A DNA stretch of 64,000 nucleotides, taken from positions 17,795-81,794 of the forward strand of contig METM01000020.1 in the NCBI GenBank assembly GCA_001772335.1. Reading direction: 5' to 3'. Below, one piece after another: positions 9,578-61,505 of the stretch. Source of the stretch: a candidate division WOR-1 bacterium RIFCSPHIGHO2_01_FULL_53_15 (lineage in GTDB: Bacteria; Margulisbacteria; WOR-1; O2-12-FULL-45-9; XYB2-FULL-48-7). Below the pieces are notes generated by a model. It did no database searches, was not told the DNA's origin, and saw only the letters and a list, made by a program, of their open reading frames with translations. A program made the position numbers and the translations under genes. The number at the start of each line of letters is the position of its first letter. The first letter of the stretch is position 1.

Positions 9578-10978
9578 ATGCCCTCATTTATCGACGAAAG
9601 TTTGATCCATGCTCTCCTCAAAGAACCAAAGTTCGCCTCGCCCAAGACAGCCGAAAATATCATACAGAAAGCGCTCATGCTCAAAGGGCTCTCCCTTGAA
9701 GAGACTGCCATCTTGCTCAACTGCCAGGACAAGCGGGTCCTCGCCAAATTATTCCGCGCTGCCCGAAAAGTCAAAGAAGCCATCTACGGCCGGCGCCTCG
9801 TCATCTTCGCGCCGCTCTATATCTCAAATTTTTGCGTCAATAACTGTCTCTATTGCGGTTTTCGCCGGGGGAACCTCGCGCTGGCCAGAAAACGGCTGAC
9901 GCTCGATGAAATAAGGGGAGAAGTCCGGGTCCTCGAAGAACAAGGGCACAAACGGATCCTGCTCGAGACGGGCGAAGAGCCGAAGGCCGGCATCGGTTTC
10001 CTGGAAAGAGCGATCAGGGCTATCTACTCGACAAAATACGGGCGCGGCGAGATCAGGCGCCTCAACGTCAACGCGCCGGCCATGTCGGTTGCGAATTTCC
10101 GCCGTTTGAAAAAGTGCGGGCTCGGAACATATCAGCTTTTTCAGGAGACCTATCACCGCGAAACCTACGAAAAAGTCCATCCCTCAGGACCAAAATCAGA
10201 TTTCATCTATCATTTATTCGCCATGCACCGGGCGCAGAAAGCGGGGATCGATGATGTGGGAATCGGCGTGCTCTTTGGTTTATACGACTATAAGTTCGAA
10301 GTTTTAGCCCTCCTCTCCCATGCCCTGGAGCTGGAGCAGCGGTTCGGCGTCGGCCCGCACACCATCTCGGTGCCGAGGATCGAGCCGGCTTCGAACGCCC
10401 CAATTGCCGGCAATCCCCCATACCCCATACCCGATACCGATTTTAAGAAGCTCGTCGCCATCCTGCGCCTGGCCGTCCCCTACACCGGGCTTATCCTCTC
10501 GACGCGCGAATCGGCCAAAATGAGGGATGAAGTGATCGGTCTCGGCATCTCGCAGATCAGCGCGGGATCAAAAACCGTCCCCGGCGGCTACAAAGCGTCG
10601 GAGAATAGGAATAGGAAGAGGAAGAAGGTTAGCGGCCAGTTTTCGATCAGCGACAACCGCTCGCTCGCCGAAGTGATCCGGGATATTTCAAAACGTGGTT
10701 ATTCGCCGAGCTTCTGCACCGCCTGCTACCGGCTGGGGCGCGTCGGTGCGGATTTCATGGATATGGCCAAGCCGGGGTTAATAAAAAACTTCTGTTTGCC
10801 CAATTCACTGCTGACCTATAAAGAATATCTGTTGGATTACGGGGATAAAGCGGCAAAGAAATTAGGAGAGAAAGTCATTAAGCGGCATTTAAAAGACATT
10901 ACAAACCGCAAGATCAAAGAAAAAACAATTGATAAACTGGCCGAACTGGAAACTGGCAACCGGGACCTGTACTTCTAG
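9578..10978 (+). CDS. hydG: HydG-type radical-SAM tyrosine lyase (the CO/CN-generating [FeFe]-hydrogenase maturase family)
   Basis: 466 aa. The N-terminal cluster motif is FAPLYISNFCVNNCLYCGF. A ThiH-like core follows. The HydG-specific C-terminal motif CTAC-x22-C (CX2CX22C) lies at FCTACYRLGRVGADFMDMAKPGLIKNFC. Confidence 0.8.
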   Translation: MPSFIDESLIHALLKEPKFASPKTAENIIQKALMLKGLSLEETAILLNCQDKRVLAKLFRAARKVKEAIYGRRLVIFAPLYISNFCVNNCLYCGFRRGNLALARKRLTLDEIRGEVRVLEEQGHKRILLETGEEPKAGIGFLERAIRAIYSTKYGRGEIRRLNVNAPAMSVANFRRLKKCGLGTYQLFQETYHRETYEKVHPSGPKSDFIYHLFAMHRAQKAGIDDVGIGVLFGLYDYKFEVLALLSHALELEQRFGVGPHTISVPRIEPASNAPIAGNPPYPIPDTDFKKLVAILRLAVPYTGLILSTRESAKMRDEVIGLGISQISAGSKTVPGGYKASENRNRKRKKVSGQFSISDNRSLAEVIRDISKRGYSPSFCTACYRLGRVGADFMDMAKPGLIKNFCLPNSLLTYKEYLLDYGDKAAKKLGEKVIKRHLKDITNRKIKEKTIDKLAELETGNRDLYF

Positions 10979-11010: not shown

Positions 11011-11286
11011 TCAGGCAGGCACTAATTCTCTTCGTCTGGTTAATTTTTTCATGCCTTCTGGGCTTAAGATCTTTAGCAACGGCACGTTAAATTGCTTGGC
11101 AAAAGTGTTCAATTCCTTGCCTGACACATGCACGGGGTTAATAAACTCAAACCCAAGAACTTTATTACGTTTGTCCAAATCGACATATATTTCATTTTCA
11201 GAATCCAGCTCAACTGTTTTACTAACCTTGCCTTCACTAACTTGAATATAAAGAAGCCCTTCCGACGCATCTAATGAAATTTGCAT
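11011..11286 (-). CDS. DUF2283-family small protein, a putative antitoxin-like partner
   Basis: 91 aa, reading MQISLDASEGLLYIQVSEGKVSKTVELDSENEIYVDLDKRNKVLGFEF, the DUF2283 pattern. It lies in an AT-rich island. Confidence 0.5.
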   Translation of the reverse strand: MQISLDASEGLLYIQVSEGKVSKTVELDSENEIYVDLDKRNKVLGFEFINPVHVSGKELNTFAKQFNVPLLKILSPEGMKKLTRRRELVPA

Positions 11287-11301
11287 CTTAACCCCTCCTT
11301 G

Positions 11302-11523
11302 TTATGCCCAATATGAAGTAATGATGAGAATAGAGCTGGCTTTCCGTAATTCGTAAACGACCCAAAGCAATTTACCATTCGTATTCCCGCATATCTTATG
11401 TCTCCCTTTTTTCTTTGCCGGGACAGAAGTAGTTTTGTTCTGTAGGGCGATTTTAATCTCGCTGATCTTAATTTTTCTTGAGCTTAATCTCTGCTTAGCA
11501 TGTGGAGTTAAACTGATTTTCAC
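11302..11523 (-). CDS. DUF4258-family small protein, a putative toxin-like partner
   Basis: 73 aa, with HAKQRLSSRKI, GKLLWVVYE and ILIITSYW, typical of DUF4258 paired with DUF2283. Confidence 0.5.
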   Translation of the reverse strand: MKISLTPHAKQRLSSRKIKISEIKIALQNKTTSVPAKKKGRHKICGNTNGKLLWVVYELRKASSILIITSYWA

Positions 11524-20544: not shown

Positions 20545-21213
20545 TTATTGTCCTTTTAAACCTTTGATGGCTTGCGCGTAATCTTTTGAACTAAAGATCG
20601 CCGAGCCCGCCACCAATATATCGGCGCCGGCTTTGACGGCTTCTTTCGCCGTTTCAAGGTTGATTCCGCCGTCGATTTCGATCTCAGGTGGTTTATAATT
20701 CCCCACACTTAAGTGTGGGGAATTAGTAATTTTATCTTTCAGCTTTCTAACCTTCCCCAGCGCCTCCGGCATGAACTTCTGCCCGGCAAAACCCGGATTG
20801 ACCGACATGACGAGGACCATCGCAACTTTATCCAGAACGTGAAAGATCTTTTCCACGGGGGTGGCCGGATTGACGACTACCCCCGGCTTGACATTATTCT
20901 GCCTGATCAATTCAATGTCTTCGTCCAAACTTTTCGAGGTCTCGGCGTGGATGGTGATGAGATCGGCTCCGGCTTTGGCAAAATCCGGGATATAGCGGTC
21001 TGGGTTCTCGATCATCAGGTGGACGTCGAGCGGCAGTTTTGTCGCCCGGCGGCAGGCCCTGACAACCAGCGGGCCGATCGTGATGTTGGGGACAAAATGG
21101 CCGTCCATGACGTCGATATGGATGAGGTCGGCGCCGGCCGCCTCGACCTTTTTTATCTCGGCCTCAAGATTTCGGAAATCGGCGGACAGGATCGACGGCG
21201 CGACTTTTATCAT
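20545..21213 (-). CDS. rpe: Ribulose-phosphate 3-epimerase
   Basis: The protein has HIDVMDGHFVPNIT, HLMIE, VNPGFAGQKF and EIDGGIN. It contains an in-frame insertion (see the palindrome feature). Confidence 0.85.
   Translation of the reverse strand: MIKVAPSILSADFRNLEAEIKKVEAAGADLIHIDVMDGHFVPNITIGPLVVRACRRATKLPLDVHLMIENPDRYIPDFAKAGADLITIHAETSKSLDEDIELIRQNNVKPGVVVNPATPVEKIFHVLDKVAMVLVMSVNPGFAGQKFMPEALGKVRKLKDKITNSPHLSVGNYKPPEIEIDGGINLETAKEAVKAGADILVAGSAIFSSKDYAQAIKGLKGQ
20697..20724. repeat. 28-bp perfect palindrome AATTCCCCACACTTAAGTGTGGGGAATT inside rpe. It encodes the extra loop NSPHLSVGNY.
   Basis: I read it directly. The sequence is its own reverse complement. Relative to canonical Rpe, the region between KLKDKI and EIDGG is about 7-9 residues longer. 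Confidence 0.8.
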
Positions 21214-38837: not shown

Positions 38838-38947
38838 CTTCCTCCCGTTTACTATAACCCGAATTCTTGGTACAATTGTTTATCGGCAGGGGTTCCTAGA
38901 AATTTCAGGGGATTTTGGGAAATTGCGGGATTAGGGGGGATCGAAGA

Positions 38948-39286
38948 ATGATTGGAAAGCTGAACGAAATTGAAGAAAAGGCGGTTAAGGAATTTACTCA
39001 TGAATTAAGATCCTTTGCCGGTAGAAGCGTTAAACAGGTCTTGTTGTTCGGCTCAAAAGCCAGGGGCGATTTCAATAAAGAATCCGATCTTGATTTATTT
39101 GTGCTTGTCGGGCAAGCCGATCGCGATTTAAGGCGCAAAGCCGCGCAGATCGTAAATGAAATCCTGCTTAAATACGGCGTTTTGATCTCGCCGAGATTAA
39201 TTCCCGAAATCCGCTATGCTTTCCAAAAACGCCTGGAAACCGGTTTTATAAAAAATGTTGAACGGGACGGCATAGAGATTGAATAA
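38948..39286 (+). CDS. Nucleotidyltransferase (MNT-like) antitoxin component
   Basis: It has the LLFGSKARGDFNKESDLDLFVLV Pol-beta NTase motif. The RBS is AGGGGGGA. Confidence 0.7.
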   Translation: MIGKLNEIEEKAVKEFTHELRSFAGRSVKQVLLFGSKARGDFNKESDLDLFVLVGQADRDLRRKAAQIVNEILLKYGVLISPRLIPEIRYAFQKRLETGFIKNVERDGIEIE

Positions 39287-39686
39287 AGAAACCTTAAAAG
39301 AAAAGATCCGCCTTGAGTTGGAAAGAGGGGATGAATCGCTGAAAAGCGCCGGGCTGAATTTAAGGGAAGCGCTGTTTGACGAGTCAGTTTCCAGCGCTTA
39401 TTACGCGATGTTTCATTCGATCAAAGCCGTTTTATTGACCATCGGACAAGAGCCGGCCACTCATCAGGGGGTTGTCGCCCTTTTTGGCCTGCACTTTATT
39501 AAGCCCGGGCTGATCGAAAAAGAATACAACGCTCTTTTTATCGAGGCCAAAGATGACAGGGAAGACAGTGATTACGATGTCACTAGAAAATTTATCAAAG
39601 CCGAGGCTGAAGAGCGGCTTTTAGCGGCGCAAAAACTTGTTTCCCGAATTCATAAATATTTATCTGAAAAAGATTTTATCAGTTAA
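39279..39686 (+). CDS. HEPN-domain toxin component
   Basis: It shows an all-alpha HEPN pattern (SAYYAMFHSIKAVLL). It overlaps MNT by 8 nt. Confidence 0.65.
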   Translation: MNKETLKEKIRLELERGDESLKSAGLNLREALFDESVSSAYYAMFHSIKAVLLTIGQEPATHQGVVALFGLHFIKPGLIEKEYNALFIEAKDDREDSDYDVTRKFIKAEAEERLLAAQKLVSRIHKYLSEKDFIS

Positions 39687-59163: not shown

Positions 59164-59235
59164 GGCCCCATCGTCTAGGGGTTAGGACACCAGCTTTTCA
59201 AGCTGAGAACCGGGGTTCGATTCCCCGTGGGGCTA
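59164..59235 (+). tRNA. tRNA-Glu (anticodon UUC)
   Basis: I folded the cloverleaf by hand. The acceptor is GGCCCCA/TGGGGCT and the T-arm has GGTTCGATTCC. The anticodon loop is TTTTCAA with TTC at positions 34-36. No CCA is encoded. Confidence 0.8.
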
Positions 59236-59267: not shown

Positions 59268-61505
59268 ATGTTGAAACCCGTATTCAATATCGCTTTTGTT
59301 GGTAATTATTCCCCGCGCATTTGCGGGATCGCCACTTTTACGACCGATCTTTGCGAGGCGACCGCTAAACTCCTTTCTCCCCGGTCGAATGTCTTTGCGC
59401 TCGCCGTCAACGACACGGATCAAGGGTGCGCTTATCCGCGCCGGGTGGAATTCACCCTGCAAAAGAACCAGCAGAGGGATTATTATGAAGCGGCTAATTT
59501 TATCAATGCCAGCAATGCCGATGTGGTTTGTATCCAGCACGAATACGGGATCTACGGCGGTTGGGACGGCGTTTATATCCTCTCTTTGATCTCCAGCCTC
59601 AGCGTACCGGTGGTAGTGGTGCTGCACACGGTGCTCAAAAATCCCACCCCCAACCAGAAAAAGATCATCCAGGAGATGGCCCAGCGGGCCAGCCAGCTGG
59701 TGGTGATGAGTAATCTGGCCATAACTATATTGCAGGAGGTTTACGCCATACCGGCCGAGAAGATCAGGATGCTCTATCACGGCACGCCCGATTTTACTAC
59801 GCTCAATAACAGCCACTATAAAAAACGTTTCCAGGTTGAAGGGAACCAGACCCTGTTGACCTTTGGCTTGCTCAGCCCGAACAAAGGGATCGAGACGGTC
59901 ATTAAAGCTCTCCCCAAAATAGTCCGGGAATTTCCCAGGTTGATATATATTGTTCTGGGAAAAACCCACCCCAATGTCCTTAAGGAATACGGCGAGAAAT
60001 ACCGGACCGGTCTGGTCGCGCTGGTCGATGAGCTGGGACTGCAGGAGCATGTGATCTTTGATGACCGCTTTGTCAGCCTGGAAGAGCTCTATGCCTGGCT
60101 CATGGCGGCGGATATCTATATCACGCCATATTTGAACGAGGCGCAGATCGTCAGCGGGGCCCTCTCTTACGCGATCGGGGCGGGAAACGCCATAATCTCC
60201 ACCCCTTACTGGTATGCCAAAGAGATGCTCGCCGAAGGAAGGGGACGATTAATAAACTTTGGGGACGCCGAAGCGCTGGCCGCGGCTCTGCGCGACCTCT
60301 TGTCGAACAAAGCGACGCTAAAGTCGCTGCGCGATAAAACCTATAAATTTGGGCGGCAGATGCGCTGGGAAAAAGTGGCGGAAAAGTATTTGGGAATATT
60401 CAAGCAAACCGCGTCTACCGCGGCCAAAAGATCTTTAGCGCTAAAAACCCCCGTCCTGCTTTTGCGCGAACCGCTATTCGATCTGACGCACTTGAAGCGC
60501 CTGACCGATGATACCGGACTGATCCAGCATGCCAAGTATATTGTGTCCGACCGGCATACGGGTTATTGCCTGGACGATAACTCCCGCGCGCTGATGTTGT
60601 GCGCTTGGGCGTTTTTCCTGCTGCAGAGCGACGATGCCAAGGAGTTAATTTCCACTTATTTCAGCTTTACCCATTTTATGCAAAATTCCGACGGGCGTTT
60701 TCGGAATTTTATTGATTACCAGCGCCACTTTCTTGATGAAATCGGCTCGGACGACGCGTGCGGACGGGCGCTGTGGGCTTTGGGCTATATAATATGGCGG
60801 CCGCCGCGCGATGCCTATCGCTCCCTGGCTTATGAGTGTTTTAAGAAGGCGTTGCCCCACGTGAGCGGCTTGAACCTGCGCGGAAAAGCCCTGGCCATGT
60901 TGGGTTTGGCATCCTATCTGCGCTGCTACCAGGGGGATGAGAGCGTCGCCGCGCAGCTTCGCGAATGCGCTGACTATCTTTTGGCTTTATATAAAGATGT
61001 GGCTGATGATAATTGGCGCTGGTTTGAAGATATCATTTGTTACGATAACGGGATCATGCCGATGGCGCTATTCCAAACCTATTCCATTCTCCGCGAAGAA
61101 AAATATTTGCAGATCGCCAGAGAGTCTCTGGGCTTCCTCGAAAAGAACATAGTCCATAATGACCGCCTTTCGATCGTTGGCAGCCGCGGCTGGTATAAGA
61201 GAGGCGGGGAGAGGGCGCAGTATGACCAGCAGCCGATCGACGCGGCGGCCATGGTCCTGGCTTATCAATCGGCTTACCGGGTTACCCGGGAGAAAGATTA
61301 CTTAATAAAGATGCGGCGGGCGTTCGGCTGGTTTCTCGGCGAGAACGATATGGGGATGTCTTTGTACGATCACGAGACCAAGGGCTGCGCCGACGGATTG
61401 CTGCCGGAGGGGGTCAGCTTGAACCAGGGGGGCGAAAGTACGGTCTCTTTTCTGATGGCGCTTTTGGCCATGAACGAAGAGTATGAAATAGCAAGCGCGG
61501 TTTAG
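59268..61505 (+). CDS. GT4-family glycosyltransferase fused to a C-terminal (alpha/alpha)6-like glycosidase-type domain
   Basis: The N-terminal ~380 aa have the GT-B fold and GT4 motif (EGNQTLLTFGLLSPNKG). I infer the six-hairpin character of the C-terminal ~350 aa from aromatic/acidic repeat motifs. Confidence 0.6.
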   Translation: MLKPVFNIAFVGNYSPRICGIATFTTDLCEATAKLLSPRSNVFALAVNDTDQGCAYPRRVEFTLQKNQQRDYYEAANFINASNADVVCIQHEYGIYGGWDGVYILSLISSLSVPVVVVLHTVLKNPTPNQKKIIQEMAQRASQLVVMSNLAITILQEVYAIPAEKIRMLYHGTPDFTTLNNSHYKKRFQVEGNQTLLTFGLLSPNKGIETVIKALPKIVREFPRLIYIVLGKTHPNVLKEYGEKYRTGLVALVDELGLQEHVIFDDRFVSLEELYAWLMAADIYITPYLNEAQIVSGALSYAIGAGNAIISTPYWYAKEMLAEGRGRLINFGDAEALAAALRDLLSNKATLKSLRDKTYKFGRQMRWEKVAEKYLGIFKQTASTAAKRSLALKTPVLLLREPLFDLTHLKRLTDDTGLIQHAKYIVSDRHTGYCLDDNSRALMLCAWAFFLLQSDDAKELISTYFSFTHFMQNSDGRFRNFIDYQRHFLDEIGSDDACGRALWALGYIIWRPPRDAYRSLAYECFKKALPHVSGLNLRGKALAMLGLASYLRCYQGDESVAAQLRECADYLLALYKDVADDNWRWFEDIICYDNGIMPMALFQTYSILREEKYLQIARESLGFLEKNIVHNDRLSIVGSRGWYKRGGERAQYDQQPIDAAAMVLAYQSAYRVTREKDYLIKMRRAFGWFLGENDMGMSLYDHETKGCADGLLPEGVSLNQGGESTVSFLMALLAMNEEYEIASAV

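Follow-up and report, generated by a model that had tools for sequence, protein, structure and literature searches.

A REP-like perfect palindrome in frame within rpe of a WOR-1 bacterium, and the dispersed hairpin family to which it belongs

Most of what is known about repetitive extragenic palindromic (REP) sequences and their REP-associated tyrosine transposases (RAYTs) comes from Proteobacteria, and opinions still differ on whether to regard them as parasites or as domesticated partners. A REP family is usually confined to one lineage, and mobilisation as single-stranded hairpins is the mechanism proposed both for REP/REPIN-RAYT systems and for IS200/IS605 insertion sequences. Here we describe a family of perfectly palindromic hairpins through one copy that lies in frame within rpe, the gene for ribulose-phosphate 3-epimerase, in 64,000 nt of contig METM01000020.1 (the whole of this stretch is called the window) from a candidate division WOR-1 (Saganbacteria/Margulisbacteria) bacterium. 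A REP-like hairpin, untagged and perfectly palindromic, is the best description of the element, which goes with an IS200-type Y1 transposase; the window palindrome is probably a resident copy of a REP-type family of very short (20–30 bp) hairpin-forming repeats.

REPs bear a GTAG or CGTC tetranucleotide at one end, and their occurrence inside genes is documented, notably in repair genes and tRNA synthetases (Di Nocera et al., PMC3733652). CGTC REPs have stems of 8–9 bp and loops of 4–5 bp and are without an associated transposase; the short Rickettsia palindromic elements RPE-4 and RPE-6 are classed among them (PMC3733652). RAYTs are single-copy and vertically inherited, and Bertels et al. (2017) described an "IS200 Group 3" that has IS200-like sequence and RAYT-like behaviour (PMC5581495).

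An earlier note on this stretch, made from the sequence alone, reported an exact 28-bp palindrome, which is indeed present as AATTCCCCACACTTAAGTGTGGGGAATT at window positions 20697–20724. Its true extent is 30 bp, since perfect self-complementarity (TAATTCCCCACACTT|AAGTGTGGGGAATTA) continues for one base on each side, and the complete unit, TAATTCCCCACACTTAAGTGTGGGGAATTA, occupies 20696–20725 (no strand is assigned to it). Within it, the hairpin core of 20 nt at 20701–20720, CCCCACAC-TTAA-GTGTGGGG, likewise strandless, is the part kept in all copies and phyla, and its flanks here, TAATT/AATTA, are the commonest flank pair of the data set (9 of 124 contexts). Such a palindrome is beyond chance, as had been proposed: shuffling the window 100 times with dinucleotides preserved gave no match, not even at three mismatches, and our own arithmetic (4^-15 x 64,000 centres) gives an expectation of about 6e-5 per 64 kb for a perfect palindrome with 15-bp arms. 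Folding of the window copy as single-stranded DNA gives a stem of 13 bp closed by a 4-nt loop (-12.6 kcal/mol, z = -6.6). Neither a second copy nor any other hairpin of the form CCCC-N4-loop-N4'-GGGG was found within the 64 kb.

The host gene (20545–21213, minus strand) encodes a 222-aa protein, for whose identical counterpart P0001 the Pfam family PF00834 is listed; it lies in the order Ser/Thr kinase, PASTA protein, rpe, ribD, which recurs in at least eight related loci. The palindrome takes in the third base of the T163 codon, ends at the second base of the Y173 codon and is read in frame as N164-SPHLSVG-N172-Y173. The codons of the enlarged loop, N164-SPHLSVG-N-Y-K-P-P176, span 20686–20724 on the minus strand and amount to 16 residues, as against nine in 104 of the 117 closest homologues with a readable loop. 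The loop, which connects helix 6 to strand 7, has seven residues more than in solved Rpe structures, so that an extension previously put at about 7–9 residues is borne out at its lower bound. An AlphaFold2 model places it between helix 150–164 and strand 177–181, with block means of the predicted local distance difference test (pLDDT) of about 80–82 against a mean of 91 overall. In the TIM barrel of Rpe, helix-to-strand connections are on the face opposite the active site, and from this fold the enlarged loop would face away from it.

Copies of the element are dispersed. The exact core, CCCCACACTTAAGTGTGGGG, is present in 42 stretches of a one-genome-per-species collection and 91 metagenome stretches (133 together), which reduce after removal of duplicates to 124–126 distinct contexts in metagenome-assembled genomes (MAGs) and metagenomes. 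The palindrome has thus many counterparts elsewhere, and because 48 of about 126 such contexts lie in frame within long open reading frames (ORFs), the comparison made in the earlier note with palindromic elements that insert in frame into genes is supported. Per MAG, we count 11 exact copies, with variants besides, in Saganbacteria Zod_Metabat.143, 8 in DeMMO3_43 and 5 in STF1_193; the exact core is also found in MAGs labelled Chloroflexi, Bacteroidota, Ignavibacteriota and Nanoarchaeota. In the pooled flanks of 124 contexts, conservation reaches just 3 nt past the core (A-T-W / W-A-T). The bases outside the core are inverted repeats, not direct repeats, and lineages differ in this outer stem. 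Saganbacteria have (T)AATT there, Chloroflexi GATA and Bacteroidota TAA, and a GC-rich organism has (C)TATA. The (C)TATA flanks are shared by 10 loci of one metagenome. Palindrome length across copies is 20–36 bp, with modes at 20 and 26–30. There is no sign of target-site duplication, direct-repeat flanks being no commoner than in permutations (1 vs 2.8 for k=3; 0 vs 0.9 for k=4).

What defines the family is a Watson-Crick hairpin: CCCC pairs with GGGG at its base, the inner stem co-varies, the loop is 4 nt long and the outer stem is A/T-rich and variable. A search that allowed 1–4 mismatches and did not require pairing yielded 20 near-copies, 15 of which retain all eight core stem pairs (8/8), their differences being either paired or in the loop. 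Double-sided stem changes number 16 where 5.7 are expected, and the covariation score of 0.212 (vs 0.092) is reached in none of 500 shuffles; controls slid along the sequence score low. One-sided changes of the wobble (G-U) type are absent from all 220 pair cells. The stem would fit DNA pairing on both strands better than an RNA helix, the sample being modest. Elements are found singly, as inverted doublets and as clusters between genes: variants with an asymmetric loop form intergenic doublets 7–42 nt apart at the loci L001, L008, L024, L028 (here in inverted orientation) and L067, another inverted doublet is present at L145, and multi-hairpin arrays are seen in alignment A2.

Inside long ORFs lie 48 of 126 contexts (≈38%), the other 78 being outside. 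Two reading frames of the core are used, 40 of the intragenic copies being read as PHLSVG and 8 as PTLKCG. The third frame holds a TAA and closes up to eight ORFs of at least 150 aa (..PHT*), some of them perhaps spurious; the clearest case is leuS at L048:3830–3849 (...KPHT*), whose LeuRS is 817 aa from ATG to stop. Host genes checked with Pfam are mostly housekeeping genes, and hosts include LeuRS, MutS, MiaA, GltB, PdxJ, RecJ, PurL, L-aspartate oxidase (NadB), PrmC, an SMC-like ATPase and a chorismate-binding enzyme. For rpe, mutS, leuS, miaA and gltB the identical insertion site is used in several lineages. Compared with solved homologues and insert-free orthologues, insertion points correspond to gaps, variable loops or linkers. 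Relative to distant PDB homologues, the net insert in these other genes ranges from no gap to six residues, and because of this variation the size of the element is not definable from net insert length.

Two local arrangements around intragenic copies were also observed. One 1040-aa ORF, for which Pfam gave no match, contains two in-frame copies (L086:1480–1499 and 2368–2387) with the same flanks (TTAG-core-GAAAAGG) and the peptide SPTLKCGGKG; it may encode a repeat protein organised around the element. Partial tandem duplications of half an element adjoin a full copy at L073:11640–11700, L053:430–475 and L117:2715–2775, as in the LeuRS peptide NSPHNMTD-SPHLSVGN, which corresponds to TCCCCACA, a 14-nt spacer and the core. 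They suggest slippage or nested insertion at the hairpin.

A link to transposases came from a targeted tblastn search for Y1 genes with an IS200 TnpA query, the hits being confirmed with Pfam, NCBIfam and a purpose-built hidden Markov model. The 974 kb of fetched DNA holds just two Y1_Tnp genes, in unrelated organisms, and both adjoin the element. At L066, tnpA (10335–10736) is flanked by perfect copies at 10283–10313 and 10754–10786, with degenerate copies farther out on each side; at L048, a single copy lies 32 nt upstream of the tnpA start, on one side only. Both proteins match Pfam Y1_Tnp (PF01797; E-values 1e-24 and 1e-32) and exceed the cut-off of 55 bits for NCBIfam transpos_IS200 (NF033573) with 83 and 98.6 bits, and they are 32% identical to each other. 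No tnpB was seen. The L066 protein has a relative at L145 that is 58% identical and likewise encoded within the order ilvBN-ilvC-tnpA-leuA; neighbouring and housekeeping proteins of the two organisms are about 66% identical. Upstream of the L145 gene stand two related but different hairpins, which make up the inverted doublet mentioned above. Because the element flanks IS200-type Y1 transposase genes, it is most likely the recognition hairpin of such an enzyme. A Y1 gene seen once per organism at a conserved position, with a flanking hairpin that changes between relatives and with that hairpin dispersed, is the pattern of REP/RAYT systems ("REPtrons"). The earlier note had also mentioned a recombination site or a protein-binding operator: the first idea is partly right in that the element adjoins Y1 transposase genes, while an operator read as double-stranded DNA is not favoured, given that the stem co-varies.

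The copy in rpe can be followed through orthologues whose DNA was picked by protein similarity and not by the palindrome. Nine of them, at 70–89% amino-acid identity, share the identical CC CCA CAC TTA AGT GTG GGG AAT. Pairwise synonymous differences amount to 0 of 280 in the palindrome against 3000 of 5749 (52%) in the rest of rpe, and single-codon columns to 7 of 7 against 5 of 103 amino-acid-invariant degenerate columns outside it. Two further orthologues, L138 with one and L141 with two compensatory pair changes, still have perfect palindromes, at the cost of amino-acid replacements (S-to-N, G-to-E). A single pair is broken in L140, which comes from the MAG with most copies. Every orthologue that has this loop thus has palindromic DNA (nine with the identical core, two compensated, one with the broken pair), and the alignment proposed in the earlier note gives no case of the loop without it, the insert itself being lineage-variable. 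The variant centred on TTTAAA also turns up independently, between genes of a Saganbacteria MAG (L036). It is the nucleotide sequence, not the peptide, that is maintained in the rpe palindrome. Because it is fixed, or altered only by paired changes, while the other synonymous sites of rpe changed freely, the hairpin is itself either constrained or continually renewed, unlike drifting dead selfish DNA. Selection on the hairpin, renewal by a transposase and repeated re-insertion are the candidates for this freezing, and we do not decide among the three.

The same Rpe loop has received a second family of 20-nt palindromes, CCTGCCTGCCGGCAGGCAGG (core TGCCTGCCGGCAGGCA), twice independently, with seven added residues each time and in two frames: NLACRQAG in P0090 (L142:569–584) and MPAGRQA in P0062. 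This second family is also present in Margulisbacteria MAGs at L013:1006, L018:5973, L036:3209, L038:2169 and L120:14080; its L013 copy adjoins the main element.

The likeness to REP/REPIN-RAYT systems is extensive: a dispersed stem-loop of 20–40 nt that occurs as singles, inverted doublets and clusters without target-site duplication, a Y1/HUH gene flanked by copies (L066), a syntenic gene with a different hairpin (L066 vs L145) and some copies in frame in genes. The differences are that the palindrome is perfect rather than imperfect, untagged, low in copy number and intragenic in about 38% of contexts, that the adjoining transposases score as IS200, that one 20-mer is found in several phyla and that the hosts are uncultured candidate phyla. 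Because the GTAG/CGTC tag is absent and the RAYT model scores under its cut-off, we set the element apart from the REP family proper. With IS200/IS605 it shares the Y1 HUH TnpA, the hairpins on both sides of tnpA and the lack of target duplication. In contrast, IS200/IS605 elements have left-end and right-end hairpins that are imperfect and unlike each other, where both flanks at L066 carry the same perfect palindrome, and they occur in multiple identical full-length copies, where here one gene per organism was seen, at a syntenic site. Solo hairpins also far outnumber the gene, and no tnpB was seen. IS200 Group 3 is similar, by description only, in its IS200-type transposase, in showing no sign of duplication and in a flanking short sequence repeated in the genome, although copy number and the type of flanking sequence may differ.

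Rickettsia palindromic elements resemble the element in lying in frame in many housekeeping genes, tolerated in surface loops; they differ in host lineage and, no direct comparison of sequences having been run, show no similarity in sequence, and the element here lacks the CGTC tag and has an associated transposase. The long form, RPE-1, is much longer than this element. The likeness to these elements drawn in the earlier note therefore applies to the in-frame behaviour, with long RPE-1 an analogy only, and REP-type hairpins are the closer match; the 8-bp core stem and 4-nt loop are close to the dimensions of CGTC REPs. Mobile mitochondrial GC clusters and palindromic hairpins, and the coding palindromes of Nematomorpha (PMC6649704), are also short hairpin DNA in frame in conserved genes, but these are organellar, have no known transposase and differ in sequence and size.

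We hypothesize that a Y1 transposase acting in trans would copy or move elements of this REP-type family in the form of single-stranded DNA hairpins. One ancient copy would have inserted into the loop between helix 6 and strand 7 of rpe, where the open frame of the palindrome (SPHLSVG) would add seven residues that may be tolerated because the loop is peripheral, and the insert would then have been inherited through a clade of WOR-1/Saganbacteria. Several observations weigh against this account. The same 20-mer in Saganbacteria and in the Chloroflexi, Bacteroidota, Ignavibacteriota and Nanoarchaeota MAGs is not predicted by simple vertical co-evolution of REP and RAYT, and copy number is low, with at most 11 exact copies per MAG and one in the 64-kb window. 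No Y1 transposase gene turned up in the window or in any fetched Saganbacteria/Margulisbacteria locus, and homologue searches with the L066 and L048 proteins gave few hits, none labelled Saganbacteria or Margulisbacteria. With the NCBIfam RAYT model (NF047646 REP_Tyr_transpos), these two proteins reach 33.7 and 39.3 bits, under the cut-off of 80. The pooled flanks of the 124 contexts contain no GTAG or CGTC tag, only the symmetric A-T-W. The element is also a perfect palindrome, and E. coli REPs were no longer cut by RAYT once their palindrome had been strengthened (PMC3733652). An empty "KITN-NYKPP" allele is not seen among 120 homologues, so that the dynamics of insertion and excision are unobserved. 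Lastly, transposition alone leaves the absence of synonymous change in a resident intragenic copy unexplained.

Another possibility, which we raise tentatively, is that the hairpin has come to serve the cell and is held inside genes by purifying selection, a view compatible with a transposon origin. As a host-selected nucleic-acid element, it could be recognised at replication forks by a domesticated Y1 enzyme that acts on single-stranded DNA, or it could be a signal for structure or processing. The lack of synonymous change across nine diverged rpe orthologues (P ~6e-10) argues for such a role, together with the compensatory pair changes accepted despite amino-acid replacements, the 20-mer that is identical across several phyla and the Y1 gene, seen once per organism, that is syntenic between organisms as distant as L066 and L145; RAYTs have themselves been argued to be domesticated genes (PMC5581495). 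On the other hand, the variable loops and spacers that house copies are unrelated and share no gene context, copy number varies from 1 to at least 11 among related MAGs, and close relatives do without the rpe insert, such as P0012, whose MAG has four copies elsewhere. The degenerate rpe copy of L140, in the very MAG with most copies, points the same way, and paired substitutions could arise without selection if hairpins template their own correction. A broader proposal, which we judge rather unlikely, goes beyond selfish DNA that is merely tolerated: a domesticated IS200-type Y1 enzyme, or some other host factor, would read the hairpin as a selected signal in single-stranded DNA (or RNA), preserved to the base within essential genes and with a core common to distant phyla of subsurface microbes. 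It would imply a community-wide, functionally maintained REP-like system, with coding copies under dual constraint from protein and hairpin.

A role at the RNA level, as a conserved mRNA stem-loop that acts as stabiliser, nuclease or processing site, or translational pause, seems to us doubtful. Because the palindrome is perfect, the same fold would form from either transcribed strand; many of the intergenic copies have co-directional genes on both sides and precede a ribosome-binding site and start codon by a few tens of nucleotides (L008, L012, L026, L027), and the stem co-varies. REPs, for their part, are reported mostly downstream of coding regions and are plausibly transcribed (PMC3733652). 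Unlike typical RNA helices, however, every stem change goes from one Watson-Crick pair to another, with no one-sided change in the 220 pair cells; in addition, no Rfam family matches and the element is directly associated with a DNA transposase. Equally improbable, in our view, is that the rpe copies are young, having been gained repeatedly at the same loop or spread by recombination, in which case their conservation would be only apparent. A hot spot would suit the two independent inserts of a different palindrome family (CCTGCCGGCAGG; P0090, P0062) in this loop and the interleaving of insert-bearing and insert-free alleles in a rough tree, where P0004, which has the insert, is nearest to P0012. 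Between these two alleles the entire loop differs and not the palindrome alone, so that the pair gives no exact insertion boundaries, and nucleotide identity drops to 0.685 in the 20 codons upstream of the insert, against 0.80–0.86 in the other three regions. The tree, though, is a quick neighbour-joining one of 28 sequences, and the mosaic signal is weak, covering 60 nt. Insert-bearing alleles also share residues outside the palindrome (ITN...N-[YN]-x-P-P) that have no counterpart in insert-free alleles, and because of this we regard the enlarged loops as homologous. Moreover, the codons flanking the palindrome do vary synonymously, and the 120 homologues include no empty-site allele with this type of loop.

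We find it hardly credible that the palindrome is a symmetric protein-binding site on double-stranded DNA (an operator, a parS-like site or a site for a nucleoid protein) that arose by substitution. Sites of parS cluster near the origin and number a handful per genome, some of them inside genes, and the element resembles them in its perfect two-fold symmetry, cross-phylum conservation, handful of copies per genome and partly intragenic location. Yet the loops exceed those of homologues by 5–7 residues, a sign of insertion and not of substitution, covariation of the stem fails to keep a half-site recognition sequence, and copies are spread over at least nine contigs of one MAG. Canonical parS (TGTTTCACGTGAAACA) is found in a fetched locus of undefined taxon, L076, and because of its presence there we take canonical parS to be in use in this sample; a parS-like identity was rejected on these grounds. 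The two canonical sites at L076 (867–882 and 2476–2491) are 1.6 kb apart, in a locus that also holds the element.

Other candidates were rejected more directly. The recurrence of the same rpe insert in at least nine independent assemblies, from different projects and with diverged flanks, means that it is not an assembly or adapter artefact; long ORFs also stay open in two frames. A known RNA family was dismissed after the window and 10 loci had been scanned with Rfam at the gathering cut-off and gave only a tRNA. A miniature inverted-repeat transposable element of the DDE type, which would have terminal inverted repeats around an internal segment and a total size of about 50–500 bp, is excluded by a length of 20–30 bp with no internal segment and by the missing target-site duplication. 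CRISPR repeats do not apply either, there being no arrays and just one copy in almost every locus, with the copies of two-copy loci spaced 448–3210 bp apart. As to a phage or plasmid vector, the core is unmatched in the viral contigs of IMG/VR and the 30-mer in plasmid and phage collections. As to a recurrent neighbour other than the host genes, when 1,699 ORFs from the loci were clustered all against all, the groups recovered were orthologous insertion sites alone, and the loci had no accessory gene in common. In the literature searched, neither the sequence of the element nor its peptide was found.

The kind of element is known already, intragenic copies included; what is unexpected is base-for-base conservation in an essential gene and identity across phyla. 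The range of such systems is widened to an untagged, perfectly palindromic hairpin family in WOR-1/Saganbacteria and several other groundwater and sediment phyla. The rpe copy, traceable through orthologues at 70–89% identity, is direct evidence of something acting on the hairpin inside an essential gene, and through it the choice between selfish relic and selected element becomes a testable question. The family also accounts for odd inserts of 5–7 residues (SPHLSVG or PTLKCG) in housekeeping proteins of these lineages, and the 20-mer can serve as a marker for locating elements.

Other hairpins accompany the core in some organisms. In Bacteroidota/Ignavibacteriota MAGs, it lies in intergenic three-hairpin modules that consist of GGGCTAAAGCCC, about 21 nt, the core, about 23 nt and GGACTTTAGTCC; the small outer hairpins are mutually inverted and the spacers are not conserved. 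Such modules are located at L006:3860–3970, L020:4895–5000 (nested in a longer inverted repeat), L030:3810–3905, L031:965–1065, L040:2365–2470 and L041:800–895. In a Chloroflexi MAG (L015:4990–5090, L009:6830–6920), GTAG-tagged REP-like hairpins, GTAGCCCCAGGCTTTAGCCTGGGGTAT, are read in frame as repeated PGFSLGY; they adjoin the main element (TPHLSVGY) close to the N-terminus of a PKD/beta-helix protein of 1069 aa, with GTAGGGGCGCAGCATGCTGCGCCCCTAC palindromes nearby. The Ga0315314 contigs of one metagenome (L051, L054, L062, L075, L081 and L085; alignment A2) share a conserved array of the core, ACAGGCAGCCTGCCTGT and a stem containing CCCCGCGTACGCGGGG, and the CCCCGCGTACGCGGGG palindrome also stands alone at other sites of the same contigs.

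Elsewhere in the window, three 2-kb segments have a low GC content, about 0.48–0.49 against about 0.56 in the remainder. Two of them hold small paired genes of toxin-antitoxin-like character, at 11011–11523 (minus strand; DUF2283 and DUF4258) and 38915–39686 (plus strand; an NTP_transf_2 nucleotidyltransferase and a HEPN protein). The third contains a tRNA gene at 59164–59235 (plus strand, Rfam 59.6 bits), and about 700 bp downstream of it, at 59926–59967, lies an imperfect AT-rich palindrome that is 76% complementary.

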